The position numbers were made by a program, and so were the translations under genes. Below are positions 28,390 through 48,408 of a DNA stretch of 64,000 bases, in pieces. Each line of letters begins with the position of its first letter. Within the stretch, counting starts at the first letter, position 1. The notes beneath the pieces are model-generated. The model was not told the DNA's origin and ran no database searches. It saw only the letters and a list, made by a program, of their open reading frames with translations. The stretch covers positions 203,791-267,790 of the forward strand of contig CAVUJW010000013.1 in NCBI GenBank assembly GCA_963741915.1. Direction: 5' to 3'. The stretch comes from an uncultured Chloroflexia bacterium. Lineage in GTDB: Bacteria; Chloroflexota; Limnocylindria; Limnocylindrales; CSP1-4.

Positions 28390-28396
28390 CTCGGCC

Positions 28397-28582
28397 ATGG
28401 CCATCGAGGCCGGCCGGGCGCGCCGCGTGGCGGTCGTGACCGGGCGGACACGAGGTGCGATGAGCACGGGCGCACGATCGAACGCCGCATGGCCGGGATC
28501 GACGGTCCATGGCCGTTGCCGAACAGACTCGGTTGTCCGGTCACCGCCCGGCAGCTCCCAAGGATCGAGCAACCTCGAGTGA
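28397..28582 (+). CDS. 61-aa ORF, possibly a remnant of an SDR N-terminus
   Basis: MAIEAGRARRVAVVTGRTRGAMSTGARS... The stretch RVAVVTGxTRG resembles the SDR Rossmann start, but the rest is not SDR-like. Its stop overlaps the GTG of the next gene (GTGA). GC3 is ~75%. Confidence 0.25.
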   Translation: MAIEAGRARRVAVVTGRTRGAMSTGARSNAAWPGSTVHGRCRTDSVVRSPPGSSQGSSNLE

Positions 28583-29775
28583 GAACCGAGCTTCTGCGTC
28601 CTCAGGATCCCGCCTGGCCGACCTGGCTGCGCGAGGGCGCGCACGACATCTACCAGACGGCCGGCTTCCACGCCTACGCGGAGGGGTCGGGCGAGGGCCG
28701 AGCGTTCCTTGCCGTCCTGGGTGATCGTCACCGGGGACTGGCCTGGCCGTACCTGCTCCGCGATGTCGCCGGCGTCCCGGGTCTGGCCGGATCCGACGCC
28801 ACCGACGTCACCTCGGTCTATGGCTACCCCGGGCCCGTCGCGTGGGGATGCGATCCCGGTGACCGGTTCCTCGGGCTCGCGTGGACGGAGCTCCTGGCCC
28901 TGTGGCGCGACCAGCGCGTGGTCGCCGCCTTCACCAGGTTTCATCCGTTGATCGAGAACGTCTCGCTGGTCGCGGGCTTCCGGGGCGAGGAGGGCCTCCG
29001 GATCGGGATCCAGCCCGTCATCCGGCTCGGCGAGACGGTCTCCATCGACTGCGCCATCGACGATGAGGCGGCGCGGGGTGCGTATCACTCCAGCGAGCGG
29101 CGCAACATCGAGCGGGCCCGCGACGACGGGCTGATCACGGTCGAGGACGAAGGCTGGGCATCCCTGGGCGAGTTCGCCCGGCTCTATCGCGCGACGATGG
29201 CGCTCAACAGGGCGTCCCCGTACTACTACTTCTCCGACGCGGACCTCGTGCGTCTCCGCGATGCGCTCGCGGATCACGCCCATCTGCTGGTGACCCGCCG
29301 CGGGGACGACATGGTCGCCGCCGGGATCCTGATCGAGTACGCGGGGATCGTCCACACGTACCTGTCGGCTTCGGATCGTGGGGTCCGCCCATCACCCAAG
29401 CCGCTGTTCTACGACGATGCGCGGCGGTGGGCGCGCGCCCGCCGCAACCGCCTGCTGCACCTGGGAGGCGGTCGCGGCTCGACCGACGACTCGCTGCTCG
29501 CGTTCAAGCGCCGCTTCTCCGCGCTACGGCACGCCTTCCACGTTGGCAGGTGGGTGCTGGATGCACGGGCTTACCGCGACCTGGTGGTGATGCGCAAGGC
29601 CGTCAACGGACCCCATCCGAGCCTGGATCCCGCCTACTTTCCCGCGTATCGCGCCGAGCGGCCAGCCCGCTCGGCAGGGGTCGGGGCGGCCGACACCGCC
29701 GCGCCGGCCATGAACGGAGGGCCGATGACCGGCCGCGATCCCGGCGATCGCCCGCCCCAACGCGACGCCCGGTGA
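28579..29775 (+). CDS. FemAB/BioF2-like (Acetyltransf_6, GNAT-fold) acyltransferase, paralog 1
   Basis: The ORF is open from 28489. The GTG at 28579 aligns with the paralog N-termini (VRTELLRPQDPAWPTWLREGAHDIYQTAGFHAY). Shared blocks: VYGYPGP, FTRFHPL, RRNIERA, IVHTYLSAS, RLLHLGGGRG...LLAFKRRFS. Confidence 0.7.
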   Translation: MRTELLRPQDPAWPTWLREGAHDIYQTAGFHAYAEGSGEGRAFLAVLGDRHRGLAWPYLLRDVAGVPGLAGSDATDVTSVYGYPGPVAWGCDPGDRFLGLAWTELLALWRDQRVVAAFTRFHPLIENVSLVAGFRGEEGLRIGIQPVIRLGETVSIDCAIDDEAARGAYHSSERRNIERARDDGLITVEDEGWASLGEFARLYRATMALNRASPYYYFSDADLVRLRDALADHAHLLVTRRGDDMVAAGILIEYAGIVHTYLSASDRGVRPSPKPLFYDDARRWARARRNRLLHLGGGRGSTDDSLLAFKRRFSALRHAFHVGRWVLDARAYRDLVVMRKAVNGPHPSLDPAYFPAYRAERPARSAGVGAADTAAPAMNGGPMTGRDPGDRPPQRDAR

Positions 29776-30461
29776 TCGTCCAGCGGCGCCTCAAGCGTGC
29801 CGGCGACGTCCTGGGTGCCGCCGTCGGCCTGGTCGCGCTCGGTCCGCTCATCGCCGGGACGGCGCTCCTGGTCCTCGCGATCGACGGCCGCCCCGTGCTG
29901 TTCCGTCACCAGCGACCCGGGCTGGGCGGTCGGCCGTTCACGATGCTCAAGTTCCGCACGATGCGCGACCCTGCCCCGGGTGAGGGCTGGCGGATGGGCG
30001 ACGGCCGGCGCGTCACGAGGCTGGGCCGCATCCTGCGCTCGACCAGCCTCGATGAGCTGCCCGAGCTGTGGTGCGTCCTGCGCGGCGAGATGAGCCTGGT
30101 CGGGCCACGCCCCTTGCTCGTCGAGCATCTCGCCGCCTACACGGCGCAGGAGCGACGCCGTCATGACGTGCTTCCGGGGATCACCGGCTGGGCGGTCGTC
30201 CACGGTCGCCACACGAGCAGCTTCCAGGAACGGCTCGCCCTCGACGTGTGGTACGTCGACCACTGGAGCCTGCTGCTCGACCTCCGGATCCTCGTGCTGA
30301 CGATCGTCCAGCTCCTTCGACGGTCCGACGTCGTCTCGGTCCAGGACCCCGCGCTCGTGAATCTCCCGACGCGGTTTGCCGCTGCGGAGGAGGGGCTGCG
30401 CTTCGGGATCCCGAGCGGCGGCCGGTCTGATCCGGGCGAGCCACGAGCGGACGCCGGCTGA
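29772..30461 (+). CDS. small monotopic phosphoglycosyl transferase (bacterial sugar transferase, PglC/WbaP-C-like), copy 1
   Basis: The GTG at 29772 overlaps the upstream stop. Sequence: [25 protein letters not shown]...[27 protein letters not shown]...[21 protein letters not shown]...[12 protein letters not shown]. Confidence 0.85.
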
Positions 30462-30462
30462 T

Positions 30463-31883
30463 TCAGGCCCGGACACCGCCGCGGGGCGGCACGCCGATCC
30501 CGAGAACGCGGACCCGGCCGGGCCAGGCGAGGTCGCGGAACCCGTTGCGTCCGTCGAGCACGACCTCGAGGTCCGGGAACCACGCGGAATCCAGGTTGCG
30601 AAAGGCCGGGTCCGCCGGTCTGGAACACGATCGCCCGGGCGCCGGACGGCGACGCCCAGGTCCACGGCTCCGCGCCGCAACCCCTCACCTCGTCGGTCGA
30701 GAGCAGCGGATCCCAGGCCGCGACGTACGCACCCCGGGCGGCCAGCGCACCGATGAGCGGGATCGCCCTCGAGTAGGCCAGCTCATGGACGCCCTCGCGG
30801 TAGGTCAGGCCGAACACCAGCACCGGCACGCCATCCAGACGCCCGATCGCATCCTCGAGCGCTCCCACGGCGACCTCGACCTGGCCGTCATTGACCCGTC
30901 GGGCCCGCTCGACCAGGCCCATCTCGGGCGCCCGCGACAGGAGGAAGTGCGGGTACACCGGGATGCAGTGGCCACCGACCCCCAGCCCGGGCTGGTGGAT
31001 ATGGCTGTACGGCTGGCTGTTCGCGGCGCGGATGACCTCCAGCACGTCGATCCCCACCCGGTCCGCGTACCGGGCGAGCTCGTTGGCAAAGGCGATGTTG
31101 AGGTCGCGATAGGTGGTGTCGGCGAGCTTGCTCAGCTCGGCCGCCTCGGCGCTGCTCATCGCCACCACCTCCGCATCGAGCACGGAGGCGTAGAACCTCG
31201 CCGCCCGGTCCGTGGAGGCGCGGCCCGATCCCGCCGACGAGCTTGGGATACGTCGCGAGGTTCCGGAACACTGCGCCGGTGAACAGCCGCTCGGGCGAGA
31301 ACGCGAGGTGGAAGTCGCGTTCGACGACCAGCCCGCTGGCCCCCTCGAGCAGCGGGCCGTAGCGACGGCGGGTGTCGCCGACCGGCAGCGTGGTCTCGAA
31401 GATCACGGTCGCGCCCGCGCGGACCCCTGGGGCGATCGCGCTGGCCGCGGCGTCCATGTGCCGGTAGTCGGGTTGGTGATCGCCGTCGAGCATGACCGGC
31501 ACGATGAGCACGATGACGTCCGACTGGCGGGCCGCCGCCGCGCCGTCGAGCGTTGCCCGCAGCCTGCCCGCCGCGTGGGCCCCCGCGACGCGCTCTGCGA
31601 GGCCCGGCTCTTCCGCGACGTGCGCCCGGCCCCCGTTGACCGCCTCGACCACGGCCGGGTTCACGTCGACCGCGATGACGTTCCACCCGTGGGATGCGAA
31701 CTGGGCGGCGAGCGGCAGCCCCATCTTGCCGGCGCCGACAACGGTGACCGTGCCGGCCGTGCCCGGCTCGCCCGACCATGGCGTCACCGACCGCACCGGT
31801 CCGTGATCGCACGGCTGCGCGGGCAGCTGGATCGTGCCCCCGATCACGCTCGCGGAGGTCGACGGTCGGTCGGTGATGGTCAT
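30463..31883 (-). pseudogene. UDP-N-acetyl-D-glucosamine/nucleotide-sugar 6-dehydrogenase (WbpA-like) with two apparent 1-nt frameshifts (~31220 and ~30616)
   Basis: There are three colinear pieces. The first is VTVVGAGKMGLPLAAQF...YPKLVGGIGP (frame of ORF 30888..32369). The second is ASTDRAARFYASVLDAEVVAMSSAEAAELSKL...GLGVGGHCIPVYP...AIVFQT (frame of ORF 30161..31183). The third is ADPAFRNLD...VVLDGRNGF...GVRA* (third frame, stop 30463). Confidence 0.8.
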
Positions 31884-32905
31884 CGCGCGGGGATCCTCGC
31901 CGCGAGCTCGGTCAGGTCGGTCGGCCGGCCCTCGGCGGCTGCCTGCAGCAGGCCGGCAGCGATGGCCAGCGCCCACAGCCCGTCCTCGCCGTCCACGACC
32001 GGGCGACCGCCCGACCGCGCGACCTCGAGGAACGCGTCGAGCTCGGCCGCGAGCGGCTCGTGGCTGGCCACCTCCATCGGCACCACGTTGCCCTCGAACG
32101 TCGTTGCGTAGCCGTCGATGATCGTCGGGCTGCTGATGTCCGCGCTGGTGAACGTCAGCCGCTGGGTGAGGTAGTCGAGCTCGAACATCCCCGCCTCGCC
32201 CACGACCGTCAGCTGGCGCCGCTTGGCGGGCGTCAGCCAGTTGACGTCGAGCATGCCGGTCGCGCCCGAGGGGAAGTGGAGCAGGCCGAACAGCAGGTCC
32301 TCGTTGGTGGCGTGGAGCCGCTGGGCGGTCTCCGCGTAGACCCGGGTCGGCCGCTCGCCCGCGACCCACGACAGGATGTCCGCGTCGTGGGTGGCGAGGT
32401 CGATGGTCACCCCGACGTCGCGGATCCGGGCCGGGAACGGTCCCGCCCGCCGGCTGGTGATCGAGTACAGCGTCCCGACCCAGCCCTTGGCCAGCCGACG
32501 CCCGAGCTCCAGGACGGCGGGGTTGAACCGCTCCACGTGGCCGACCTGGAGGGGGACGCCTCGCCGCTCGACGGCCGCCACCAGCTCGATCCCCTCGTCG
32601 ACGGTCGCCGCGAGCGGCTTCTCGACGAGGACCGGCAGGCCACGCTCGATCGCCGCCAGCGCCAGCGCCCGGTGGGTGGTCGTGGGCGAGGCGACGACCA
32701 TCGCGTCCAGCCGCGCCTCGTCGATCATCGCTCGCGCATCGCTGAAGGGCGCGGCGCCGGTCTTGGCCACGGCGTCGGCCACCAGCGCCCGATCGGGGTC
32801 GGCCACCGCGGCCAGCGTGCAGTCATCCCGTGCGGACAGGTGGCGCAGGTGGTTGCGGCCCATCGAGCCCAGGCCGGCGAGCCCGACCCTGAGGGGCGCC
32901 GGCAT
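31880..32905 (-). CDS. Gfo/Idh/MocA family oxidoreductase (WbpB-like)
   Basis: 341 aa from ATG 32905: MPAPLRVGLAGLGSMGRNHLRHL...VLVEKPLA...GHVERFNP. It overlaps both neighbours by 1-4 nt. Confidence 0.8.
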   Translation of the reverse strand: MPAPLRVGLAGLGSMGRNHLRHLSARDDCTLAAVADPDRALVADAVAKTGAAPFSDARAMIDEARLDAMVVASPTTTHRALALAAIERGLPVLVEKPLAATVDEGIELVAAVERRGVPLQVGHVERFNPAVLELGRRLAKGWVGTLYSITSRRAGPFPARIRDVGVTIDLATHDADILSWVAGERPTRVYAETAQRLHATNEDLLFGLLHFPSGATGMLDVNWLTPAKRRQLTVVGEAGMFELDYLTQRLTFTSADISSPTIIDGYATTFEGNVVPMEVASHEPLAAELDAFLEVARSGGRPVVDGEDGLWALAIAAGLLQAAAEGRPTDLTELAARIPAR

Positions 32906-34020
32906 CAGGCCGCCCCTCCGGCCGCCGGGGCGGCCCCGACCGGCGTCGCGACCTCGCGGATGGCGGTGATCACGGCTTCCAGCTCGTCCAGCGCGAGGTT
33001 GGGTCGCACCGGGATCGAGACGACCTCGTCGGCGAGGCGATTGGTCACCGGCAGGTCCTGCTCGGCGGCCCGGGGAAGGTAGGCCTGGAGGTACCCCTGG
33101 CGATGGACGGGCACGGGGTAGTAGACGAGCGTCCCGATGCCACGCTCGGTAAGGCCGTCGATCACCGCCTGCCGCTGGCCAGGGAAGCGCATCGTGTACT
33201 GGTGCCACACGTGCTCGCGCCCCTCGGGGATACCGGGGACCAGGTAGCCTCGCAGGCCCTCGGTGAGGCGGGCCGCATGGTGACGGCGGCGCTCGGTGCG
33301 CTCGTCGAGCCGCGCCAGCTGCGCGAGCCCCAGCGCCGCCGCAAGATCCGTGGGCTTGAGGTTGGTCCCCAGCGACTCGTGGTGGTAGCGGACCCGCATG
33401 CCGTGGTTGCGGAACAGGCGCAGGCGATCCGCGACCGCGTCGTCATCGGTCGTCGCGAGGCCGCCCTCGCCGGTCATCAGGTTCTTGGTCGCGTACAGGC
33501 TGAACATCGCCGGCCCGAACTGGCCGGCCCGGCGGCCCCGGTAGGTGGCGCCGTGGGCCTGGGCCGCGTCCTCCACGAGCCGGATCCTGCGGCGTCGCGC
33601 GATGTCGACGAGGGGATCCATGTCCGCCATCAGGCCGTACAGGTGCACCGGCATGATCGCCCGCGTGCGGGGCGTGATCGCCGCCTCCACGAGGTCCGGA
33701 TCGAGGCAGAAGTCATCCGCCCGGATATCCACGAAGACCGGGCGAGCGCCGACTCGCAGGATCGCGCTGACGGTCGCGTTGAAGGTGAAGCTGGTCGTGA
33801 TCACCTCGTCGCCGGGGCCGATCCCGAGCGCCTCGAGGATCGCCTCGAGGGCGACGGTCCCGTTGGCCATGAACACCGCGTGCCGGACGCCGCAGTAGGC
33901 GGCCCACGCCTCCTCGAACTCGACGCTGCGGCGGCCCATCGCAAGCATGCCCGAGCGGAGCACGTCGATCACGGCCTGCTCCTCGGCCGGGCCCAGGTCT
34001 GGCTTCGAGATCGGGATCAC
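32905..34020 (-). CDS. DegT/DnrJ/EryC1/StrS family aminotransferase (WbpE-like)
   Basis: The GTG at 34020 is preceded by GAAGGAG 8 nt upstream. Sequence: VIPISKPDLGPAEEQAVIDVLRSGMLAMG...EDAAQAHGA...SLYATKNLMTGEGG (PLP-Lys motif). Confidence 0.85.
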   Translation of the reverse strand: MIPISKPDLGPAEEQAVIDVLRSGMLAMGRRSVEFEEAWAAYCGVRHAVFMANGTVALEAILEALGIGPGDEVITTSFTFNATVSAILRVGARPVFVDIRADDFCLDPDLVEAAITPRTRAIMPVHLYGLMADMDPLVDIARRRRIRLVEDAAQAHGATYRGRRAGQFGPAMFSLYATKNLMTGEGGLATTDDDAVADRLRLFRNHGMRVRYHHESLGTNLKPTDLAAALGLAQLARLDERTERRRHHAARLTEGLRGYLVPGIPEGREHVWHQYTMRFPGQRQAVIDGLTERGIGTLVYYPVPVHRQGYLQAYLPRAAEQDLPVTNRLADEVVSIPVRPNLALDELEAVITAIREVATPVGAAPAAGGAA

Positions 34021-34658
34021 GTTGCTGACTCCTTCGTGCGCTCGAGGCACCGGTCGCCATCGATGGCATAGCGGTCGCCGCACGCCGGGCACCTCGCCTC
34101 GCCCGACGCATCGCCGGGCAGGGGCAGCCCGTCTCGGCCGACCAGCCGCCTCCCGCAGGCACACACCCAGCCGAGCCGGCGGGCGGGGTTGCCCGCCACC
34201 AGCGCGTGGTCGGGCACGTCGCGGGTGACCACCGCGCCGGCGCCCACCGTGGCGAACCGCCCCACGTCCCGGCCGGCGACGACGACGGCACCCGCGCCGA
34301 TCGAGCAGCCGGTGCGGAGGCGGATCGGGCTCACCACCCAGTCGTCGGCGCGGGCGAGGTCCCCGGCTGCGGTGATCGCCCGGGGGAACCGGTCGTTGGT
34401 GAGGATCGCGTTGGGCCCGATGAACACCCCGTCCTCGACCGTCACGCCGTGGTAGACGAGGGCCGCGTTCTGAATCTTGACCCGGTCGCCGATCTCGACG
34501 CCCTCGTCGATGAACGCGTCGCGGCCGACGATGCAGTCGGCACCGATCCGGGCCCCGGTCCGAACCTGCGCTCGGTGCCAGATGCTCGTTCGCGGCCCGA
34601 CCGACACGTCGGGCTCGAGATCGGCGCTGGCGTGGATGCGGGCGGAGGGATCGATCAC
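34017..34658 (-). CDS. left-handed beta-helix (hexapeptide) N-acetyltransferase (WbpD/WlbB-like)
   Basis: 213 aa, MIDPSARIHASADLEPDVSVGPRTSIWHRAQV...NDRFPRA...VAGNPARRLGWVCACG. It has hexapeptide repeats and a C-terminal Cys-rich tail. Confidence 0.8.
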   Translation of the reverse strand: MIDPSARIHASADLEPDVSVGPRTSIWHRAQVRTGARIGADCIVGRDAFIDEGVEIGDRVKIQNAALVYHGVTVEDGVFIGPNAILTNDRFPRAITAAGDLARADDWVVSPIRLRTGCSIGAGAVVVAGRDVGRFATVGAGAVVTRDVPDHALVAGNPARRLGWVCACGRRLVGRDGLPLPGDASGEARCPACGDRYAIDGDRCLERTKESAT

Positions 34659-34969
34659 GGACGGGAAGGGCTCCTACGGCGGGCAGGGCACGGTCCGCCC
34701 GCACGCAGGACCATAGCAGGGGCTCCGCGGACTCGGCGGCGGTCCTCGATCCGAGGGCGCGTCCGCGGGATCTATTCGTTGCTCGCCGGCACCGAATTGC
34801 ATGCCGCCTGGGATTGGGCCAGTCGGGGGTGCGCTACCTTGGAGGCGCGCCGCTGCAACCGCCGGGCGCCCCGAAGAGGTAGGTCTTTGGAGTTCCGGAT
34901 CTTCGTGCTGCGTTCATGCGCCACCGTCCGCGTCCGGCGCCCGTACGAACCACGCTATCGCGGCGAGGA

Positions 34970-36133
34970 ATGGGTGAGCTCATCATGAAGGTCGCACTAC
35001 GGCGGGAACTTGCTCGCCTGGATGCAGCCGACGGCGTGACGCTCATCCGCCTGGGTGGCTCGGCCTGGGACGACGCGCTACAAGCCGTCCCGGCGAGCGT
35101 GTTCCATGGCGCCGGGTACCACCGCTACAGCCGTGGATACGGGGAGGGCGAGCCCTACCTGGCGGTCGTGGGGGATCGGGTCAGGGGCCTGGCATGGCCG
35201 TACATCCTTCGGCCGATCACGGACCTCCCCTGGCTGGCCGGCAGCGGCGCCACGGACGTGCATTCCGTGTACGGATATCCTGGGCCGCTGGCCTGGGGTC
35301 ATGCTCCCGGTGACGGCTTCGTCGCGTGGGCCCTGGGCCAGGTCGGCGAGACCTGGAGAAGGCAGGGGGCGGTGAGCGCCTTCACTCGCTTCAATCCCGT
35401 GCTCGACAACGCCGGGCTCGTCCGGGACCTTGCGAGCGACGACGGCTGGATCACCCCCGCGGGCGTGAAGGCAGCAGGAGCGACGGTGTCCGTGGATCTC
35501 ACGCTCGACCAGGACCTGGTTCGCGCGCAGTACGGGCGCGACCTGGCTCGATCGATCGCGGCGCTCCGGCGACACGGGCTGGTGACCGTGCACGACGAGT
35601 GGTGGGATCACCTGTCGACGTTCGCCGATCTCTATCGCAACACGATGACGCGGATCGGCGCGGCAGATTTCTACTGGTTCCAGGAGCGCGACTTCGAGCG
35701 GCTGAGGGCCGACGTGGGAGACCACCTGCACCTGCTGGTCACGACGCTCGACGACGTCGTGGTAGCCGCCGGCCTGTTCCTCGAGCACGATGGTGTCGTC
35801 GAGTGGCACCTCGTCGGATCGAACGACCGGTTTCGCGACCTCTCGCCGTCCAAGCTGCTCGTCGACGACGCGATCCAGTGGTCGAGGGAGCGTGGCAACC
35901 GCGTGCTGCACCTCGGAGGCGGCCGCGGTGGTCGCGAGGACTCCCTGTACTGGTTCAAGAGCCGCTTCTCGCCCCAGCGCCACCAGTTCAGCACGGGTCG
36001 CTGGATCCTGGAGCCCGACCGGTATGCAGCATTCACGGCGGCTCGGCAGGCCGCGCTGCCTTCGGGGGCCTCGAGCGATCCGGACTTCTTCCCAGCCTAC
36101 CGGGCGCCGGTGCGCCCGGACGGCGCCTCCTGA
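34970..36133 (+). CDS. FemAB/BioF2-like acyltransferase, paralog 2
   Basis: The ORF is open from 34916; the start is ATG 34970 or 34985. Shared blocks: VYGYPGP, FTRFNPVL, VVEWHLVGS, RVLHLGGGRGGREDSLYWFKSRFS. Confidence 0.7.
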   Translation: MGELIMKVALRRELARLDAADGVTLIRLGGSAWDDALQAVPASVFHGAGYHRYSRGYGEGEPYLAVVGDRVRGLAWPYILRPITDLPWLAGSGATDVHSVYGYPGPLAWGHAPGDGFVAWALGQVGETWRRQGAVSAFTRFNPVLDNAGLVRDLASDDGWITPAGVKAAGATVSVDLTLDQDLVRAQYGRDLARSIAALRRHGLVTVHDEWWDHLSTFADLYRNTMTRIGAADFYWFQERDFERLRADVGDHLHLLVTTLDDVVVAAGLFLEHDGVVEWHLVGSNDRFRDLSPSKLLVDDAIQWSRERGNRVLHLGGGRGGREDSLYWFKSRFSPQRHQFSTGRWILEPDRYAAFTAARQAALPSGASSDPDFFPAYRAPVRPDGAS

Positions 36134-36153
36134 CCGGAGGCGCGGCAGTCATC

Positions 36154-39016: not shown

Positions 39017-39227
39017 CGCATCTCCGGAACTGGACGGCAACTTCCCCGCGAGATGCCGCACGCGGGCCGCTCGCACCCTATCACGCGAGCGGCTGGCATT
39101 GGGCCGAGCGCATTGGACGACTCGTTGCCGGTTGGCAACGCAAGCGTCTGCGCCGAGGATGCACTGGCGTCAGGTCGGCTACATTCTTGCCGGACTCCAA
39201 TCCCAGGTTTCGTCCAACGAGGTTCGT

Positions 39228-40551: not shown

Positions 40552-42016
40552 GCTTCCTGGGCGTCACGCCATCCGCTGCCGTCGCCGTGGTGGCCCCGGC
40601 CTCGGGGGAGCAGCTCACCTACGCGGAGCTCGTCCGGCGTGGGACAGCCATCGCCGCCGAGCTTGGCGGGGGAAGCAACTCCTGTTCGTCGTGGCCCGGA
40701 ACGCCGTGGCGAGCGCGGCGACCTACTGGGGCGCATTGGACGCCGGGCATGCGGTGGCGCTCCTCGACGGGCACGCCGCGGACGCGGTGACGGCCGCGCT
40801 GGTCGACACCTACCGACCGACGTGGCTGGCCGGCCCGGCGGACCTGCCCGACCGCCTTGCGGCGTCCGGCGTCGACATCGCCGCGACCCGTGTGGTCGCC
40901 GGCCTGACGCTGATCCGCACGGGTGCGGATAGAGCCGGCAACATCCACCCTGACCTCGGTCTGCTGCTCACCACGTCGGGCACGACGGGAAGCCGGAAGC
41001 TGGTCCGCCTGCGGGTAGGAAGCGTCGAGGCGAACGCGCGATCGATCGCCACGTGCCTCTCGCTGGCGGATGACGAGCGCCCGCTCGCCGCCCTGCCGAT
41101 CCACTACTCGTTCGGCCTGTCGGTGGTCAACAGCCACTGGCTGGTCGGGGCGACCGTCGTCCTCTCGGACCACAGCGTGCTGCAGCGCGAGCTGTGGGAC
41201 ACGTTCGACGACGCGGCGTGCACCTCCCTGGCTGGCGTCCCGTACACGTACCAGTTGCTGGAGCGGGTGGGGTTCCGCGAGATGCGGCTGCCGAGCCTCC
41301 GCTCGCTCCAGCAGGCCGGCGGCGCGCTCGATCTCAAGCTGGCGGCCATCTACCGCGACCATATGGCCGCTCGCGGTGGCCGGTTCTTCGTGATGTACGG
41401 CCAGACGGAGGCGACGGCCCGGATCGCGGTTGTTCCGCCGCACCGACTCGTCGACAAGCTTGGCTCAGCCGGCCTGCCCATCCCGGGAGGCCGGCTGCGG
41501 ATCGAGCTCGACGCCGCGGAGGACGACTCGCGTCGGCCCACCCCGGCTGACTCGCGAGCGGTCGGCGGCGTCGGTGTGTCACCCGTCGGTGAGCTCGTCT
41601 ACGAGGGGCCCAACGTCATGCTCGGCTATGCCTCCACCGCCGCCGACCTGGCCCTTGGCGATGAGCTCGGGGGCGTCCTCCGAACCGGTGATCTGGGCTA
41701 CCTTGACGACGAGGGCTTCGCCTTCCTGGTCGGTCGCAGCAAGCGGATTGCCAAGGTGTTCGGCCACCGCGTCAACCTCGATGAGGTCGAGGCGCTGGTC
41801 CGCGAAGCGGGCCCGGCGGCCGTCGTGGGCGGCCTAGACGCGATCTGGGGCTTCTGTGCGTTCGGCACGCAGGCGGAGCTCGACGCGCTTGGGCGGCAGC
41901 TTGCCCAGCGGCTCCGCCTTCACCATTCCGCGTTCCACTTCCGGCGTATCGAAGCCATCCCCACCACCGGGTCGGGGAAGATCGACTACCGGGCGGTCCA
42001 GGCATGGGTGGACTGA
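40548..42016 (+). pseudogene. AMP-dependent synthetase/ligase (adenylate-forming, DltA/acyl-carrier-loading type) with an indel in G5 run 40668-40672
   Basis: The GTG at 40548 overlaps the upstream stop: VSFLGVTPSAAVAVVAPASGEQLTYAELVRRGTAIAAELGGG. The frame then switches to that of ORF 40361..42016: KQLLFVVARNAVASAATYWGALDAGHAV...LLLTTSGTTGSRKLV...FFVMYGQTEAT...RTGDLGYLDDEGFAFLVGRSKR...GSGKIDY. Confidence 0.8.
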
Positions 42017-42102: not shown

Positions 42103-42765
42103 ATGAGCCGGGTCGTGCTGTTCGGAACGGGCGCGGTCGCCCGGGTGGCGCGCTTCCTGTTCGAACAGGAGTCGCCGCACGAGGTCGTCGCGCATGCCGT
42201 CGACCGCGACCACTGGGAGGGTGGACGGATCGACAGGGCCCCGATCGTCCCATTCGAGGACCTGCTGGCCGACTACCCGCCGGGCGAAGTGAAGCTGTTC
42301 GTCGCCGTCGGCTACAGCCGGATGAACGGGTTCCGGGCCGAGCGGTGTGCGCGTGCGAGGGCGATGGGCTACGAGCTCGTCACGCACGTCAGCCCGCGCG
42401 CCTCGACGTGGCCCGATCTCACCATCGGAGACAACTGCCTGGTGATGGACGAGGTGATCATCCACCCGTTTGCCAGGGTGGGCAGCGACGTGATCCTGTG
42501 GAGTGGCAGCCACATCGGCCACGATTCAGTGATCGGCGACCATTGCTTCGTATCGTCGCATGCTGTCGTCTCGGGCTACGCGACGGTCGAGGAGCGCTCC
42601 TTCCTGGGGTCCAACTGCACGATCCGCGATGGGATCACCATTGCCCGGGAGTGTGTGATCGGGGCCGGCGCCGTGGTGACCCGGTCCACCACGCCGCGCT
42701 CCGTCCACGCGGCGGCAGCCGCAATCCGGCTGCCGGCGACCAGCGACCGCCTCCCGAATCTGTGA
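42103..42765 (+). CDS. NeuD/PglD/VioB-family sugar N-acetyltransferase (hexapeptide fold)
   Basis: 220 aa. It has an N-terminal Rossmann-like part (MSRVVLFGTGAVARVARFLF...) followed by hexapeptide repeats (IGDNCLVMDEVIIHPFARVGSDVILWSGSHIGHDSVIGDHCFV...). Confidence 0.8.
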   Translation: MSRVVLFGTGAVARVARFLFEQESPHEVVAHAVDRDHWEGGRIDRAPIVPFEDLLADYPPGEVKLFVAVGYSRMNGFRAERCARARAMGYELVTHVSPRASTWPDLTIGDNCLVMDEVIIHPFARVGSDVILWSGSHIGHDSVIGDHCFVSSHAVVSGYATVEERSFLGSNCTIRDGITIARECVIGAGAVVTRSTTPRSVHAAAAAIRLPATSDRLPNL

Positions 42766-42837
42766 TCCGGGGCGCTCCAGCGGGGACCTCGCGGATGGAC
42801 CTGACCGGGCGGCCGACGTCGGCGTTCTCGCGGAGGG

Positions 42838-43686
42838 TCATTCCGCTGCCGGCTTCCGGGGCGCCGCGTGACGTGTCACCAGGTAGGCCTGCGAGTCGCG
42901 TCCATAACCCAGATCGGGTCGGGGCGTCGCCTCCATCTCGGGGTGATCGGCCAGCCAGAGCTCGAACGCGCGCGCCTCGCCCAGGCCCCGCTCGTCGAGG
43001 TGGGCCGCCGACCAGTCATCGAAGAAGATGACCGACCGATCCGCGATCAGCGGGGTGCAGAACTCGAGCGCCGTCCGCGTCGACGACTCGAGCACGCAGT
43101 CCATCATGATCAGTGGCGCTCGTTCCACTCCCAGCCGCGCGCGGGTGTCGGCGGTCAGCGTCTCCTCGTACCAGCCGGGCACGAACTCGATGCGGCCCTT
43201 GGGCACGCCCAGCCGGCGAAGGTTCGCGTTGGTCAGCCGCAGGTCCGAGTACAGCTGACCGGGCTGCAGGGTCCAGATGCCGTCGTGACCTTGATCCTCG
43301 GGCATGCCCTGGAAGGAGTCGAACCCGATCAGTCGCAGGCGATCGGCGCCGACGATCATGGTCGCGCGATACATGCACGCCATCGACGTGCCGACATAGA
43401 CGCCGAATTCGAGGTACGCGGAACCCGGGCCCAGGCCGTCGGGCTCCAGCAGCCTCAGGCTGGCCGTCAGGCGATCCACGAGATCGGCCTCGGGAACCTT
43501 GATCAGGCCCTCCATCAGCCCGAGCCGGACCTGGAGCAGCCCGAGGCGCGCGCGAACGGGCCTGGGCAGGCGCTTGAAGATCCAGCGCAGCAGGGGGCGC
43601 AGGTGGAGGCGGTCGACCATGCGGAGTCCGGCGACCGCAACGGTCCGAGCGATAGGTTCGGACATGTGTGGCGGGAACCATAGCAT
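42838..43686 (-). CDS. TylF/MycF-like class I SAM-dependent (O-)methyltransferase
   Basis: 282 aa (alternative start 43665). Sequence: AYLEFGVYVGTSMACM...IGFDSFQGMPE...FVPGWYEETL...IMMDCVLESSTRTALEF resembles macrocin-O-methyltransferase-family proteins. Confidence 0.7.
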   Translation of the reverse strand: MLWFPPHMSEPIARTVAVAGLRMVDRLHLRPLLRWIFKRLPRPVRARLGLLQVRLGLMEGLIKVPEADLVDRLTASLRLLEPDGLGPGSAYLEFGVYVGTSMACMYRATMIVGADRLRLIGFDSFQGMPEDQGHDGIWTLQPGQLYSDLRLTNANLRRLGVPKGRIEFVPGWYEETLTADTRARLGVERAPLIMMDCVLESSTRTALEFCTPLIADRSVIFFDDWSAAHLDERGLGEARAFELWLADHPEMEATPRPDLGYGRDSQAYLVTRHAAPRKPAAE

Positions 43687-43963
43687 CGCCCCGTTGGCGA
43701 CGCGATGCGGAAGATGCCACCTGTTGCCGGAGCCCGGTGGAACCCGGGTTTGCCCGGTGCGTGCCTATACTGGCGCGGCGTCCACCCCTGCGGGCGGACC
43801 AGCCCTCATTCGGCTCGTCGGAGGCGCTCGGGCATGTGGCCCAACCAACCCGCGTCCAGTCGTCGTTGGCGACGGTCCCGCGATCGGTTTCGAGTGCCTG
43901 CGTGGCGCCGGAGGTCATTCCAGGAGCGGCCGTCACGAGCGAGGGCCGAGTCGGGTTGCCGAG

Positions 43964-44848
43964 GTGCGTGAGGCGCCGGCAGCGACGCCCCGGCCGGCCG
44001 GGAATGGCAATGCATCGGTCTCGATCCCGGAGCTCGAGGAGCTCGCCCGCCAGGTCCGGGTCGAGGTCGTCCGCGCCGTGGCCAGGGCAGGAGGCGGCCA
44101 CCTGGGTGCCTCGCTGTCCGCCGCGGAGGTGCTGGTGGCGCTGTACTTCTCTGAGCTCGCCGTCCGTCCGGACGATCCATTGTGGGACGGTCGCGATCGG
44201 TTCGTCCTTTCGAAGGGACACGCGGCCCTGGCCCTGTACGCAACGCAGGCGCTGCGTGGCTACTTCCCGCTCGACGAGCTGGCCACGTTCGGCCGCATTG
44301 ACTCCCGGCTCCAGGGCCACCCGGACATGACTCGCCTACCGTCGGTGGACATGTCGTCGGGCGCGCTCGGGGTCGGCTTTTCGGCGGCGGTCGGGATCGC
44401 CCTGGGCAATCGTCTCCGGGGCAGCACGGCTCGCACCTGGACGATGCTCGGCGATGGCGAGTGCCAGGAGGGCGAGGTCTGGGAGGCCGCCTTCATCGCG
44501 GCTCGCTACGGGCTGGACAACCTGGTCGCGATCGTCGACCTCAACGGCTTCCAGGTCATCGGCTGGCCGGGAACCCGACCCGGAACGCGGCTGCCACCGT
44601 GGCCCGCCGGTCCGCTCGGGCGACAGTGGGCGGCCTCGGGCTGGCGCGTGATCACCATGGACGGTCACGACATGGCGGCCGTCGTGCAGACCCTGGAGGG
44701 TGCCCGTCGGCTGCGGGGCAAGCCCACCGTCATCATCTCCAAGACCCTGAAGGGACAAGGCGTCTCGTTCCTGCGTGGCGTCCACTCTCGCCCGCTCACC
44801 GACGCCGAGCTGGCCCTCGCCCTGGAGGAGCTCGGTGAAGCGGGCTGA
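43964..44848 (+). CDS. transketolase, N-terminal (ThDP-binding) subunit
   Basis: Lies in the frame of ORF 43499..44848: LARQVRVEVVRAVARAGGGHLGASLSAAEVLVALYF...DRFVLSKGHAALALYA...GHPD...SSGALGVGFSAAVGIAL...MLGDGECQEGEVWEAA. The start is uncertain (GTG 43964 chosen; there is no in-frame ATG). Confidence 0.8.
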   Translation: MREAPAATPRPAGNGNASVSIPELEELARQVRVEVVRAVARAGGGHLGASLSAAEVLVALYFSELAVRPDDPLWDGRDRFVLSKGHAALALYATQALRGYFPLDELATFGRIDSRLQGHPDMTRLPSVDMSSGALGVGFSAAVGIALGNRLRGSTARTWTMLGDGECQEGEVWEAAFIAARYGLDNLVAIVDLNGFQVIGWPGTRPGTRLPPWPAGPLGRQWAASGWRVITMDGHDMAAVVQTLEGARRLRGKPTVIISKTLKGQGVSFLRGVHSRPLTDAELALALEELGEAG

Positions 44849-45817
44849 GGCCGCCGATCGCGGTCCGGGCCTCACCCTGCGCGAGGCGTTCAACCGCACA
44901 CTGGTCGAATTGGCCCGCGATCACCCCGAGATCGTGATGCTCGACGCGGACAATGCGACCGCGACCGACCGAAGGGATCTTCGCCGAGGCGCACCCGTCG
45001 AAGTTCCTCCAGATGGGGGCTGCCGAGCAGAACATGGTCGGCGTGGCGGCCGGCCTTGCCGCCACAGGGTTCATCCCGTTCGTCTCATCGTACGCTTGCT
45101 TCCAGGTATTCCGGGCTCACGATCAGGTTCGCGTCCTGCTGGCGCAGACAGGGTTGCCCGTCCGGCTCGTCGGTCAGTCAGCCGGGATCCTCACCGGACT
45201 GACCGGCAAGACGCACCAGAGCATCGACGACGTTGCGGCAATGCGCGCGATGCCGGGCATGACCGTGGTCGTGCCAGGTGACGAACACGAGACGCGCGAG
45301 GTCCTGCGCTGGTCGCTCGGCCACCGTGGTCCTGTTTACATCCGGTTGGCGCGCGGAACCGCTCCGCTCATGTTCGACGATCAGTACCGGTTCGAGATCC
45401 CCGAGCGCGATCCTGGTCCGCGAGGGCGAGCAGCTCGCGATCATGAGCACCGGGCTGCAGACCTCAAGGGTGCTGGCTGCCCTGCCAGCCCTCGAAGCCG
45501 CCGGCATCCGACCATCGGTCCTGCACCTGCCGACGATCAAGCCGCTCGACGAGGAGGCGGTCGTTGAGGTCGCTGGCCTGGCCCGACGGGTCGTCACGGT
45601 CGAGGACCACGTGATCATCGGCGGGCTCGGCGGCGCCGTGTGCGAGGTGCTCGGCGCCCGATGCCCGGTGCCGGTCCTGCGGCTCGGCATCGACGACAGG
45701 TACGCCGAATCCGCCCCGCACGACGAGCTCGTCGAGCGCTACGGCATCTCCCCCGGTGTCGTAGCGCGAAAGATCATCGCGTGGGCATCGGGCGTGGCGG
45801 GCGACCGCGGTGCCTGA
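44835..45817 (+). pseudogene. transketolase, C-terminal (pyrimidine-binding) subunit with two apparent frameshifts (~44956-44972 and C4 run 45399-45402)
   Basis: There are three colinear pieces. The first is LTLREAFNRTLVELARDHPEIVMLDADNATAT. The second is EGIFAEAHPSKFLQMGAAEQNMVGVAAGLAATGFIPFVSSYACF...MTVVVPGDEHE...YIRLARG...YRFEI. The third is AILVREGEQLAIMSTG...LHLPTIKPLDEEAV...VTVEDHVIIGGLG. Confidence 0.8.
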
Positions 45818-46967
45818 GCCGGCCGATCGTGGGCCAGCGCAGCGCGTGGACGCGACCCGGCTTCATGCCTGGACGGCGGCGATCGCGCGCCGGGTGGGCA
45901 CGCCGGGCGACATTGCCACGGACGTGGCCGACGTGCTCATCGCCGCCGACCTGCGGGGCGTGGAGTCGCACGGCACGTTCCGGCTCCCCGTTTACGCTCG
46001 GCTTGCGGAGGCGTCCGTGATCATGACCGACGCCCGGCCCGTGGCCGACGGCGGGACGCCGGTGCTCCGTCGCTGGAACGCCGGCGACGGTTGGGGTCCG
46101 CACGCCGGACGGGTGCTCATGGATGACGCGATCGAACGGGCCCGGGAGCTCGGCATGGCGGGCTCGATCGCCTACCGCGCGAGCCATTTCGGGATCGCCG
46201 GCTGGTATGCGATGCGCGCCGCGGCGCAGGGCATGATCGGGCTGACCCTCACCAACGCATCGCCGCTGGTCGCCCCCACGCGGTCGCATCAGCGGCTGCT
46301 GGGCACCAACCCCATCGCCGTCGCCGCCCCAGCCGGCCGGTTCGGGATGTTCGTGCTCGACATGGCGACGTCGGCGATCACGTGGGGTCGGGTGCTCGTC
46401 GCCGACCGCCGCGGGCGGGAGCTTCCCGCCGGGGTGGCGATGGACGCCGATGGCGGTCCGTCGGTCCTTCCGGCCGATGTCCTCCGCTCCGGGGCTCTCC
46501 TGCCGCTCGGGGGAACTGAGGCAACGGCCGGCTACAAGGGCTACGGCCTCGCCATGATGGTCGACGTCCTGACCGGGGTCCTGGCGGGCGCCAACTTCGG
46601 ATCGGGTGTAATCCCGTTCTCGACGACCCGGGGCCCCTCCAACCTGGGCCAACTGTTCCTGGTCGTGAACCCGGCGGCGCTCGGCGACGATGGGTTCGTG
46701 GCGCGAATGGAGGCGCTGTGCGGCGAGCTCGTCGCTGCCCCTGCGCTGTCCGATGCGCCCGGCCCGGTGCTTATCCCCGGCCAGCCCGAGGCAGTGATGG
46801 AGGACGAGCAACGGCGGGACGGGATCCGGCTCGAGGCGGGACACCTTGAAGCGCTGGTTCAGCTCGGCGAGCGGCTCGGGGTCGCGTTTCCGCGCACAAC
46901 ACGATCGGATCGCTCCAGCTCGGCCGCCGCGGCGCCTTATCCGATCAGGGATGGGGCAACCCGATGA
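45810..46967 (+). CDS. Ldh_2 family (malate/L-lactate/sulfolactate/pyrroline-2-carboxylate type) NAD(P)H oxidoreductase
   Basis: 385 aa, ...VADVLIAADLRGVESHGTFRLPVYARL...SHFGIAGWYAMRAA...TNPIAVAAPAG...DMATSAITWGRV...GYKGYGLAMMVDVL. Confidence 0.8.
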   Translation: MPEPADRGPAQRVDATRLHAWTAAIARRVGTPGDIATDVADVLIAADLRGVESHGTFRLPVYARLAEASVIMTDARPVADGGTPVLRRWNAGDGWGPHAGRVLMDDAIERARELGMAGSIAYRASHFGIAGWYAMRAAAQGMIGLTLTNASPLVAPTRSHQRLLGTNPIAVAAPAGRFGMFVLDMATSAITWGRVLVADRRGRELPAGVAMDADGGPSVLPADVLRSGALLPLGGTEATAGYKGYGLAMMVDVLTGVLAGANFGSGVIPFSTTRGPSNLGQLFLVVNPAALGDDGFVARMEALCGELVAAPALSDAPGPVLIPGQPEAVMEDEQRRDGIRLEAGHLEALVQLGERLGVAFPRTTRSDRSSSAAAAPYPIRDGATR

Positions 46968-47215
46968 CCGCCATCGACGTCCTCGGCAAGACTTTCCGGG
47001 AGGCGCTCGGTCTGCCCTACGATGCCGCTCTCGACGGGGCTGCGTACGGCCGGACCGAGGGCTGGGACTCCGTGGGGCACCTGCAGCTGATGGTCGGGCT
47101 CGAGACCACGTTCCGGATCTCCGTGGCGGCGGACGACGTGTTCGAGATGAGCACCTTCGAGGCAGTCCGCCAGGTCCTCCGGGATCGCTACGCCATCGAT
47201 CTGCCGGACCGATGA
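46964..47215 (+). CDS. acyl/peptidyl carrier protein
   Basis: 83 aa; the ATG overlaps the upstream stop. The motif EGWDSVGHLQLM contains the phosphopantetheine-attachment Ser in a DS context. Size and helix pattern fit a carrier protein. Confidence 0.75.
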   Translation: MTAIDVLGKTFREALGLPYDAALDGAAYGRTEGWDSVGHLQLMVGLETTFRISVAADDVFEMSTFEAVRQVLRDRYAIDLPDR

Positions 47216-47301
47216 TCAAGGCCCTGACCACCTCGCACCCGAGTGGCTCCGACGTTACCGCGCCAGCAAGCGACTCAATCGCCCCCTGGCGCGGTGGCTG
47301 A
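47212..47301 (+). CDS. 29-aa coupled micro-ORF between the carrier protein and FemAB paralog 4
   Basis: The ATG overlaps the carrier-protein stop (ATGA): MIKALTTSHPSGSDVTAPASDSIAPWRGG*. GC3 is ~79%. The stop lies 3 nt before GTG 47305. Confidence 0.2.
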   Translation: MIKALTTSHPSGSDVTAPASDSIAPWRGG

Positions 47302-47304
47302 TCC

Positions 47305-48408
47305 GTGCTCGCAGCACTGCTCGAACCCGGCGATCCCCGCTGGATCGACGTCCTCGAGCGGATCCCGCACGACATGTACCACCTCCCCGGGTATGCCACG
47401 TTCGCGACGCGCTGGCACGAGTCAGGCGAGGCCATGGCGTTCGTCGCCAGCGAGCGGGATTCGGACTTCCTGGTCCCGCTGATCGTGCGCGCGGTCCCGC
47501 CCCGGATCGCAGATCGCTCGGGGTCGTTCGATGCCACCGGCCCACGCGGCTACCCGGGCCCCATCGTGCGTTCGGGTCCGGATGGACCGGACCTGCCATT
47601 CCTCGAGAGTGCCATCGAAGCGCTCGTTGGCGAGCTGCACCAACGGCAGATCGTGACGGCGTTCGTGCGCTGCCACCCGCTGCTCTCGCCGCCACTCGAC
47701 GTGCTGCGCACGTTCGGCGACGTAGTCGACCACGGCGAATCGGTGTCGATCGATCTCGCCCGCTCGGCGGAACAGGCCTGGGCCGACACCCGCGAGAACC
47801 ACCGGCGGGCGGTCAATCGGGCACGGCGCAGCGGGTATGCCGTACGGATCGACACGGCGTGGACGCGGCTCGATGAGTTCCTCGCGATCCATGCGGCCGC
47901 CATGGACCGGCTTGGCGCCGCGCCGAGCCAGCGCATTGTCCGCGGCCAGATCCTGGACCTCCGCTCGTCGACGGGGAGCGCGCTCCACCTGGCCCTCGTC
48001 GAGCATGCCGGCGATCTCGCCGCCGCAGCGCTCCTGAGCGAGGTCGACGGGATCGTCGAGTACCACCTCGCCGCCACGGCGCCCGACCACGTGGCGGCGA
48101 GCCCGACGAAGCTGCTGATCGCCGAGATCACCGGCTGGGCGCGCGATCGCGGCGATCGAGTGTTCCACCTGGCCGGGAGCCTGCGACACGACGACCCCCT
48201 CATCCATTTCAAGCGCGGCTTCTCGCCGCTGGTCCACCGAGTGGCATCCTGGCGGCTCGTGGCCGACCCGGACGCGTACGCACGACTGGTCGATCGCTGG
48301 GAGCGGCTCAGCGGCCGGCCCGCGGAAGCCGCCGATGGCGACGCGCCGTTCTTCCCGGCCTATCGCCGCGAGATCGGCAGGGTGAACGGGGAGGACGGCA
48401 CGCCCTGA
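47305..48408 (+). CDS. FemAB/BioF2-like acyltransferase, paralog 4
   Basis: 367 aa, MLAALLEPGDPRWIDVLERIPHDMYHLPGYATF...PRGYPGP...FVRCHPLL...HRRAVNRA...IVEYHLAAT...RVFHLAGSLR...HFKRGFS. Confidence 0.75.
   Translation: MLAALLEPGDPRWIDVLERIPHDMYHLPGYATFATRWHESGEAMAFVASERDSDFLVPLIVRAVPPRIADRSGSFDATGPRGYPGPIVRSGPDGPDLPFLESAIEALVGELHQRQIVTAFVRCHPLLSPPLDVLRTFGDVVDHGESVSIDLARSAEQAWADTRENHRRAVNRARRSGYAVRIDTAWTRLDEFLAIHAAAMDRLGAAPSQRIVRGQILDLRSSTGSALHLALVEHAGDLAAAALLSEVDGIVEYHLAATAPDHVAASPTKLLIAEITGWARDRGDRVFHLAGSLRHDDPLIHFKRGFSPLVHRVASWRLVADPDAYARLVDRWERLSGRPAEAADGDAPFFPAYRREIGRVNGEDGTP

Follow-up and report, generated by a model that had tools for sequence, protein, structure and literature searches.

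A polysaccharide locus of the Wzx/Wzy type, spanning approximately 28.5 kb to 62 kb of a 64-kb window on contig CAVUJW010000013.1 of an uncultured Chloroflexia bacterium (the window being the whole stretch analyzed, 64,000 nucleotides, in whose positions all coordinates are given), encodes four FemX-like proteins, here termed paralogs A to D. All four genes encode proteins of the Acetyltransf_6/FemABX tandem-GNAT fold and are genuine paralogs, a conclusion on which Pfam, a profile match to FemX, and the structural model of paralog D with its Foldseek neighbors agree. It is plausible, with a probability that we place at roughly 0.55, that they function as soluble cytoplasmic enzymes for the N-aminoacylation or N-acylation of amino-sugar precursors in the heteropolysaccharide pathway.

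The window has a G+C content of approximately 72%, and because this floods the raw lists of open reading frames (ORFs) with spurious frames, genes were called from third-position G+C (GC3) and frame profiles and then checked against Pfam and NCBIfam. A family-specific hidden Markov model (HMM) compared with all six frames of the window gave exactly four matches, all on the plus strand and each extending over the whole profile, and all four ORFs are uninterrupted (Table 1). The initial annotation had proposed four FemAB-like paralogs at these positions, and the family HMM, BLASTP and Pfam confirmed them; the starts at 28579, 34970, 39529 and 47305 coincide with the onset of homology, the longest ORFs opening earlier for A (28489) and B (34916). 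By BLASTP, A and B are 46% identical (E about 1e-93) and C and D 42% identical (E 1e-74), with the cross pairs at 32-37% (E 1e-35 to 1e-53), a similarity far above chance. The motifs previously listed for the four proteins were found to be present and colinear, although with small deviations. Thus GYPGP occurs in all four, D having RGYPGP instead of YGYPGP; the strand motif reads FTRFHPL, FTRFNPV, FVRYHPL or FVRCHPL; HRRN is intact in C only, being HRRA in D and ERRN in A and missing from B; IVEYHL of C and D is replaced by VVEWHL in B and IVHTYL in A; HLGG of A, B and C becomes HLAG in D; and FK(R/S)(R/G)FS is common to all four. No transmembrane segment was found in the paralogs, the maximum KD19 hydropathy being 1.33-1.36 for A, C and D and 1.79 for B.

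Pfam membership was judged against gathering cut-offs of 22 bits for PF13480 (Acetyltransf_6) and 24 bits for PF02388 (FemAB). Paralogs B, C and D pass the former, and A falls short of it by 0.4 bit, yet A is 46% identical to B and scores 387 bits with the family HMM. The PF02388 matches are partial, being confined to a C-terminal stretch of 75-100 residues in B (39.3 bits) and C (24.3 bits), and no match to this model was obtained for A or D. When the four paralogs were combined into a profile, this aligned with Weissella FemX along almost the entire protein (E 1e-9), and the HMM alignment places the invariant F-K of the paralogs on the F-K of FemX (residues 305/306 in 4ii9 numbering), where Lys305 is the catalytic lysine (review PMC12945691). 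This lysine is invariant in 37 family members, with the preceding phenylalanine kept in at least 90% of them. Public records name family members as "CelD/BcsL family acetyltransferase", "GNAT" or "methicillin resistance" protein. A protein identical to D (P0001) is on record on a 920,728-bp NCBI/ENA contig, and an exact-sequence look-up placed D on a 2-kb Logan contig; the sequence of B gave no record.

The structure was predicted for D, and the same fold is expected for A to C by homology. The AlphaFold2 model (367 amino acids; pLDDT 92.4, pTM 0.89) was compared with the PDB by Foldseek, and the first 27 ranks are all occupied by aminoacyl-tRNA-dependent aminoacyl transferases. The match to FemX 1ne9 has an E value of 4e-15 and template modeling (TM) scores of 0.67/0.73 (0.67-0.74 for FemX structures overall), Sba18 and Sbb17, solved with streptothrisamine, reach TMt 0.75-0.77, and FemA 1lrz and Staphylococcus aureus FemX 6snr reach TM 0.65; the MprF/aminoacyl-phosphatidylglycerol synthase domain is also among the top 27. 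The first tandem GNAT that uses acyl-coenzyme A (acyl-CoA) appears at rank 29, with TM scores of at most 0.5 for this class. The secondary structure of the model does not contain the long antiparallel coiled coil inserted in domain 2 of the S. aureus FemA/FemB type, proteins of approximately 400-430 amino acids.

The family is large: with limits of E<=1e-3 and E<=1e-30, an exhaustive search returned 12,822 and 2,927 representative clusters (50% identity), respectively. When one genome per species was considered, 396 relatives were obtained, mostly from metagenome-assembled genomes (MAGs) of Chloroflexota and from Bryobacterales (Acidobacteriota), Actinoplanes and cyanobacteria. The closest loci are in MAGs of Chloroflexia and Limnocylindrales. 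In 79 related loci (Chloroflexota, Acidobacteriota, Actinoplanes, cyanobacteria and others) sampled with approximately 10 kb of flank on each side, a gene for a small Bac_transf phosphoglycosyl transferase (PGT) and one for a DegT aminotransferase accompany the family gene nearly throughout and in many phyla. Fifty of these loci carry a single copy, 27 carry two and 2 carry three. The earlier view that four copies in one locus are unusual holds to the extent that none of the 79 has four; multi-copy loci are nevertheless common, and even fused copies exist.

In a neighbor-joining tree, run as had been proposed for the four genes, each paralog of the window groups with orthologs from other genomes and not with its relatives in the window. 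Because each is nearer to such orthologs, the four are old subfamilies gathered in one locus, rather than recent duplicates. The window shares synteny with MAG contig CAWJDE010000009.1 (loci L008 and L081), the corresponding proteins being 65-93% identical, and this contig carries orthologs of B, C and D with the same partners, but lacks the pair formed by A and its adjoining PGT. The closest ortholog of A, 60% identical, is in another MAG (L002) and is likewise followed by a small PGT. Orthologs of B were identified in L008 (65% identity) and in L003 and L004, and C is 82% identical to its ortholog in L008, with a gene for an AMP-forming ligase directly after C both there and in the window.

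Fused forms of the family were also identified. The FemX-like domain follows an N-terminal PGT in two proteins (P0051, P0089), and it is fused to a PglD-type acetyltransferase in P0118 and P0184, to a GNAT acetyltransferase in P0112 and P0128, and to a PylC-like ATP-grasp ligase in P0224, with double FemX-like chains in P0121, P0122, P0124 and P0175. A product bearing a new free amine would be in keeping with partners that act in amine acetylation or amino-acid ligation, and PGT, acetyltransferase and ligase partners fit the transfer of an amino acid onto a sugar amine before commitment to the lipid carrier. The double-module and ATP-grasp fusions may indicate peptide-like side chains on glycans in some lineages. 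The tRNA genes, of which the window has none and which were found in 2 of 60 related loci, are neutral with respect to the donor.

Within the window, the neighbors named by the initial annotation (two DegT genes, a Wbp set and a carrier-protein block) were all recovered by Pfam and motif scans. Paralog A is followed by PGT1, whose true start probably lies near 29790 by GC3 frame analysis and which also matches the C-terminal domain of TIGR03025 (EPS_sugtrans). All four WbpA/B/E/D family types, those of the pathway to UDP-2,3-diacetamido-2,3-dideoxy-hexuronic acid, are contiguous at 30161-34658 on the minus strand, although no equivalog-level model reached its cut-off, and this Wbp-like block and both DegT genes are all on that strand. 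The WbpA-like gene has its UDPG_MGDP_dh N-terminal, central and partial C-terminal domains spread over two overlapping ORFs; the WbpB-like protein scores 267 bits with NF040723 (cut-off 450) and is 84% identical to the ortholog in L008; and the left-handed beta-helix (LbH) transferase in the WbpD position scores 94 bits, below the cut-off, with the NeuD/PglB/VioB subfamily model. Downstream of B, on the opposite strand, are a fused ProDH-PGT2 gene and then DegT2, which is split over two ORFs (PF01041 positions 3-111 and 111-360; PseC model 99 and 191 bits) and is whole (377 amino acids) in L081. Paralog C is followed by the AMP-forming ligase and a NeuD/PglD-family acetyltransferase, and D by three beta-helix genes.

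Table 1. Positions of the four paralogs, of neighboring genes and of other regions in the window, and spans of the carrier-protein module in related loci
Feature	Position	Strand	Evidence or remark
Paralog A, FemX-like tandem-GNAT transferase	28579-29775	+	PF13480 21.6 bits; family HMM 387 bits
Paralog B, FemX-like tandem-GNAT transferase	34970-36133	+	PF13480 43.4 bits, PF02388 39.3 bits; family HMM 400 bits
Paralog C, FemX-like tandem-GNAT transferase	39529-40551	+	PF13480 45.8 bits, PF02388 24.3 bits; family HMM 431 bits
Paralog D, FemX-like tandem-GNAT transferase	47305-48408	+	PF13480 40.7 bits; AlphaFold2 model; Foldseek top FemX 1ne9
Family-HMM matches	28387-29772, 34883-36130, 38767-40548, 47302-48405	+	387-528 bits
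PGT1, small phosphoglycosyl transferase (Bac_transf)	29427-30461	+	PF02397 200 bits, ORF residues 123-297
WbpA/UDP-ManNAc dehydrogenase-like nucleotide-sugar 6-dehydrogenase	30161-32369	-	at least 2 frames; TIGR03026 131.6 + 163.3 bits
WbpB-like GFO/IDH/MocA oxidoreductase (UDP-GlcNAc 3-dehydrogenase-like)	31880-33208	-	Pfam GFO_IDH_MocA
DegT/DnrJ/EryC1 aminotransferase 1 (WbpE-like position)	32905-34704; coding ~32905-34000 (GC3)	-	PF01041 397 bits
LbH N-acetyltransferase (WbpD-like position), divergent from B	34017-34658	-	Hexapep 75 bits
ProDH-like domain fused in frame to PGT2 (Bac_transf)	36154-37885	-	Pro_dh 103 bits, Bac_transf 141 bits
DegT2, closest to PseC/LegC-type 4-aminotransferases, divergent from C	37879-39076	-	two frames
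AMP-forming adenylating ligase (acyl/aminoacyl-CoA or -carrier-protein)	~40562-42016	+	PF00501 115 bits
NeuD/PglD/VioB-family sugar N-acetyltransferase	42103-42765	+	TIGR03570 169.5 bits (cut-off 160.8); Hexapep
TylF-like S-adenosylmethionine-dependent O-methyltransferase	42838-43686	-	PF05711 35.5 bits; 85% identical to L008 ortholog
Split transketolase	43499-45817; N ~43900-44848, pyr+C 44953-45817 (frameshifted)	+	Transketolase_N, Transket_pyr, Transketolase_C
Ldh_2-family 2-oxo-acid/imino-acid reductase	45810-46967	+	PF02615 328 bits
Acyl/peptidyl carrier protein (candidate), 83 amino acids	46964-47215	+	GWDSVGHL phosphopantetheine-Ser motif
Three paralogous right-handed beta-helix proteins	48763-50598, 50746-52527, 52709-53827	+	Beta_helix / Pect-lyase_RHGA_epim
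Glycosyltransferase GT4	53978-55210	+	Pfam
Glycosyltransferase GT4	55249-56832	-	Pfam
Wzy	56412-57878	-	Pfam
Glycosyltransferase (GT)	57875-58822	-	Pfam
Wzx flippase	58815-60368	-	Pfam
Wzz/BY-kinase	60384-62003	-	Pfam
Frame-broken regions	30161-32369, 36154-36900, 37879-39076, 44953-45817, 19210-21444		
Recurrent carrier-protein module, window	43499-47215	+	
Recurrent carrier-protein module, L083	3578-7948		
Recurrent carrier-protein module, L079	7379-11526		

The acceptor, donor and product that we infer for the paralogs are as follows. The WbpE-like DegT enzyme, or the PseC/LegC-like DegT2, would install a free amine on a UDP-sugar, and the FemX-like enzyme would then move an aminoacyl group to this amine by means of the invariant lysine equivalent to FemX Lys305. 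The donor in this step would most probably be aminoacyl-tRNA, which is favored by the fold and by the conservation of the active site. A nearby N-acetyltransferase may cap the new alpha-amine, and the adjoining small PGT, or a GT, would transfer the modified sugar to the lipid carrier. That the paralogs are old and diverged implies four different donor/acceptor combinations or several successive additions, and we accordingly predict a repeat unit with at least two kinds of N-aminoacyl or N-acyl substituent. A reaction of this kind has an experimental precedent in Orf11 of the BD-12 pathway, a Gly-tRNA-dependent enzyme of the same fold that aminoacylates the amine of an amino sugar (PMC12945691).

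Several points weigh against such a function. Identity to FemX is only 16-18%, and literature searches on characterized family members from polysaccharide loci, on FemAB partners in the survey of monotopic PGTs and on enzymes adding N-aminoacyl groups to O-antigen sugars yielded only HfsK and the natural-product enzymes, and no paper that assigns a reaction to a member from a polysaccharide locus; the authors of the HfsK study considered its catalytic role unpredictable (PMC5362036). A sugar 4,6-dehydratase was not found among the genes scanned (2990-63993), which leaves the keto-sugar substrate of DegT2 unexplained, and the locus holds two or three conventional N-acetyltransferases, able to account for simple N-acetylation. 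Lastly, all close D orthologs with available context (L081, L083 and L079; 58-67% identity) lie directly behind genes for an Ldh_2-family reductase and a putative carrier protein of 83 amino acids, an arrangement that bears on the nature of the donor.

This conserved module of Ldh_2, carrier and AMP-forming ligase points to a thioester donor for at least D and possibly C. The ligase would load an acid onto the carrier, and D, perhaps also C, would acylate the sugar amine with it; the acid could be carboxylic or a non-proteinogenic amino acid that Ldh_2 makes or reduces and that may originate from the split transketolase, and A and B might likewise use acyl-CoA. In the window the carrier gene overlaps the end of the Ldh_2 gene by 4 bases and D begins 90 bases past the carrier, the distance from carrier to D being 53-108 bases across the window, L081 and L083, and the order Ldh_2, carrier, D-type gene recurs in L081, L083 and L079, where the AMP-forming ligase, a PGT and an LbH transferase are located upstream of the D ortholog. 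The split transketolase (genes whole in L081, at 289 and 327 amino acids) and the TylF-like methyltransferase are inserted only in the modules of the window and L081. The carrier possesses the DS phosphopantetheine motif and a weak match to the AmcB acyl carrier protein (ACP; E 6e-5, below the cut-off), with no match to Pfam PP-binding. The best NCBIfam model for the ligase is TIGR03098 (exosortase-A-associated ligase; 120 bits, cut-off 592), and AmcH, a 2-oxoglutaryl-ACP ligase, is matched at 68 bits; ligase and carrier weakly resemble a 2-oxoacyl-ACP ligase/ACP pair; the nearest ligase model moreover shares the exosortase A/XrtA label with TIGR03019, a FemAB-family model. Solved relatives of the ligase are distant (MenE, acyl-CoA ligases, an adenylation domain of a non-ribosomal peptide synthetase and a ligase loading proline on a peptidyl carrier protein; E 1e-23 to 1e-11). 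For Ldh_2, the nearest NCBIfam models describe dehydrogenases of L-sulfolactate and ureidoglycolate, none of which reaches its cut-off.

Acyl-ACP or acyl-CoA is indeed the donor of some enzymes of the GNAT fold, for instance the LuxI-type synthases and N-myristoyltransferase, and the placement of the ligase directly after C in both the window and L008 would suit a thioester donor as well. However, the close structural neighbors of D are all tRNA-dependent, with the CoA-using tandem GNATs matching much worse, and the catalytic lysine of FemX and the phenylalanine before it are conserved. Moreover, no carrier or ligase is near the distant D-like genes of L082 and L084, which keep the PGT adjacency and have DegT/AsnB or ProDH nearby, nor in most loci of the A, B and C types, and the NeuD/PglD-like LbH acyltransferase of the module could itself consume the acyl carrier, as LpxA and LpxD do. 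We regard a thioester donor as a serious but less probable alternative.

The fusion between B and DegT2 joins a ProDH-like domain (PF01619) and an entire small monotopic PGT in one frame, with a linker rich in Gly, Pro and Ala between them. In the window a frameshift falls within the PGT domain, leaving the C-terminus in a second frame, and the ProDH part scores 227 bits with ProDh_Thermus; the fusion is unbroken in the related MAG (L008 11000-13100 on the minus strand; L081 1-679). In L003 and L004 (Limnocylindrales), ProDH and PGT are separate genes on either side of the FemX-like gene, and ProDH is also beside the family in L006, L030, L065 and L084. We know of no explanation for a flavoenzyme oxidizing a cyclic secondary amine in a glycan-initiation cassette; the domain might act on an N-prolyl-type substituent. 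A speculative and rather unlikely extension combines both peculiarities of the locus, such that D-type enzymes, and possibly C, switched to a carrier-thioester donor and ProDH further oxidizes an N-prolyl-type substituent installed by a neighboring paralog. The thioester acid might then be a non-proteinogenic 2-hydroxy, 2-oxo or cyclic imino acid, possibly made by the conserved Ldh_2/AMP-ligase module with a contribution from transketolase. If true, this would imply a Chloroflexota heteropolysaccharide with up to four different N-acyl or N-aminoacyl amino sugars and a new class of donor for the Fem fold.

A different view of the four copies is that they act serially on a single sugar amine and build a short peptide branch, in the manner of FemX/FemA/FemB or MurM/MurN. 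Characterized sets of Fem paralogs act sequentially (PMC6428869; review PMC12945691), and double FemX-like chains, the fusion to a PylC-like amino-acid ligase, and the two-copy loci of Actinoplanes, where the pair is approximately 1.2 kb apart in all cases, would suit such a process. The genes of the window, however, are dispersed, every one lying in a separate module whose aminotransferase, PGT or carrier set differs from the others, and two PGTs with at least two aminotransferases fit several distinct amino sugars. The dispersed, module-wise arrangement thus favors parallel action, although a serial process still draws support from the Fem precedent and from the chains with two fused modules; on balance it seems doubtful for this locus.

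That the proteins are ordinary enzymes of peptidoglycan cross-bridge synthesis, with FemX or MurM function and by chance near a polysaccharide locus, is highly improbable: FemX is the best match in both sequence and structure, but mur, pbp and other cell-wall genes are absent from the window, PGT and DegT genes accompany the family across many phyla, members are fused to PGTs and sugar acetyltransferases, and PF02388 is matched only in part and by two of the four paralogs. Still less credence can be given to the view that some copies are inactive relics in a decaying locus. The frame-split genes of the window are the WbpA-like gene, DegT2, PGT2, the transketolase C subunit and apparently leuA, yet all four paralogs are whole over the profile, retain the catalytic lysine and the family motifs, and are unaffected by the frameshifts of their neighbors. 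The breaks are not shared with the syntenic relative (L008/L081), where DegT2 and transketolase are whole and the AMP-forming ligase is split instead; as the housekeeping leuA region also looks split and the nearest relatives are MAG assemblies, this suggests indel errors in the assemblies as more likely than gene decay. A pseudogene interpretation of the split neighbors was accordingly rejected.

Beyond the genes discussed, the region upstream of the locus (12-28 kb) is devoted to general and amino acid metabolism, with ilvB-like, ilvC, leuA and pheA genes, HerA, an aldehyde dehydrogenase and an acetolactate-synthase-like thiamine pyrophosphate (TPP) enzyme. The latter two (25043-28329, plus strand) lie directly upstream of A; the dehydrogenase is nearest to lactaldehyde and sulfoacetaldehyde dehydrogenases, below their cut-offs, and the TPP enzyme exceeds the cut-off of PRK08322 with 697 bits. 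This pair could supply acyl precursors to the locus or belong to the upstream branched-chain amino acid genes. The three beta-helix genes directly downstream of D resemble pectate lyases and epimerases, with similar sets of 2-4 genes in L004, L026, L030 and L083, and their products may be surface proteins of this system or else secreted enzymes that modify or degrade glycans. Two further ORFs on the minus strand, 24249-25043 and 62806-63993, have no Pfam match, the first being coding-like with a GC3 of 0.88.

Many O-antigens and capsules bear amino sugars that are N-acylated with amino acids or unusual acids and, as far as we are aware, most of the enzymes responsible for attaching these groups have yet to be assigned. 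The family described here is large, tightly coupled to PGTs and aminotransferases and structurally closest to tRNA-dependent aminoacyl transferases, and is therefore a strong candidate for the enzymes that N-acylate glycan amino sugars. If the predicted tRNA dependence is true, tRNA-dependent aminoacylation would extend from peptidoglycan, lipids and antibiotics to exported polysaccharides. Four diverged copies, each in a recognizable module and one of them behind a carrier, offer a convenient single system for studying the determinants of donor and acceptor. The claim in the initial annotation of a chemistry not described for this type of locus is overstated, as Fem-like genes were already recognized in exopolysaccharide (EPS) loci (TIGR03019; HfsK, PMC5362036), the family is widespread and multi-copy loci are common; only the copy number and some of the partner genes are unusual. 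The functional idea is reasonable and has been somewhat strengthened by structure, context and fusions, and it amounts to a well-founded annotation and hypothesis, not a new principle. The carrier-coupled D subfamily and the ProDH-PGT fusion are the more interesting leads.

Among known systems, FemX of Weissella viridescens (1ne9, 4ii9) is the closest in architecture, having the same tandem-GNAT fold (TM 0.67-0.74), a size of 335 amino acids compared with 340-400 for the paralogs, no coiled-coil insertion, and the F-K with the catalytic lysine, the LGG motif and the R-F-(D/H/N)-P strand motif in common with them. It differs in sequence, as the 16-18% identity indicates, and in that its acceptor is the lysine side chain of UDP-MurNAc-pentapeptide and its gene is found together with those for cell-wall functions, whereas the paralogs reside in a Wzx/Wzy locus with PGTs and sugar aminotransferases, their acceptor would be an amino sugar, and their dependence on tRNA is a prediction. 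With respect to the acceptor, the nearest counterparts are Orf11, Sba18 and Sbb17 of the BD-12 type (9wqw-9wqy), which have the same fold (Foldseek E ~5e-14) and act on an amine of the amino-sugar moiety of streptothrisamine. These enzymes are, however, smaller (~285-310 amino acids), show weak sequence similarity (E 4e-4 with the four-paralog profile), and belong to a secondary-metabolite pathway in which the acceptor is a small molecule in free form instead of a glycan precursor linked to a nucleotide or lipid.

HfsK (CC3689) and its paralogs CC2278 and CC1244 of Caulobacter crescentus are GNAT-family proteins whose closest structural homologs are Fem proteins; they are genetically coupled to EPS systems, and acylation of the holdfast polysaccharide, or of its precursors, has been proposed as their role (PMC5362036). 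From the published description, the occurrence of several paralogs per genome and the coupling to EPS are shared with the proteins studied here, but HfsK binds cyclic di-GMP (c-di-GMP) and is outside a compact PGT/DegT locus. A GAF-GGDEF-EAL protein for c-di-GMP turnover is encoded at 8469-11201 (plus strand), approximately 17 kb upstream of the polysaccharide locus, and is of note only since HfsK is a c-di-GMP effector. The nearest NCBIfam models for the paralogs and the ligase are TIGR03019 (FemAB family XrtA/PEP-CTERM system-associated protein, pepcterm_femAB) and TIGR03098, respectively. Membership in TIGR03019 was rejected, with A at 21.8, C at 21.5 and D at 26.1 bits against a cut-off of 260.35 and no match for B. 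Since these scores and that of the ligase (120 against 592 bits) are far below the cut-offs, and neither an exosortase nor a PEP-CTERM gene was observed in the window, the paralogs represent a different subfamily.

In Neisseria, PglB and PglB2 consist of a PGT fused to a domain, either an acetyltransferase or an ATP-grasp, by which a bacillosamine-type sugar is N-acylated at its 4-amine. Their acylating part is of the LbH acetyltransferase or ATP-grasp type, unlike the FemX-like paralogs, and the system serves protein O-glycosylation. The layout is nevertheless alike, an N-acylating enzyme being fused or adjacent to the PGT that uses its product, and the same arrangement is found in the PGT fusions P0051 and P0089.

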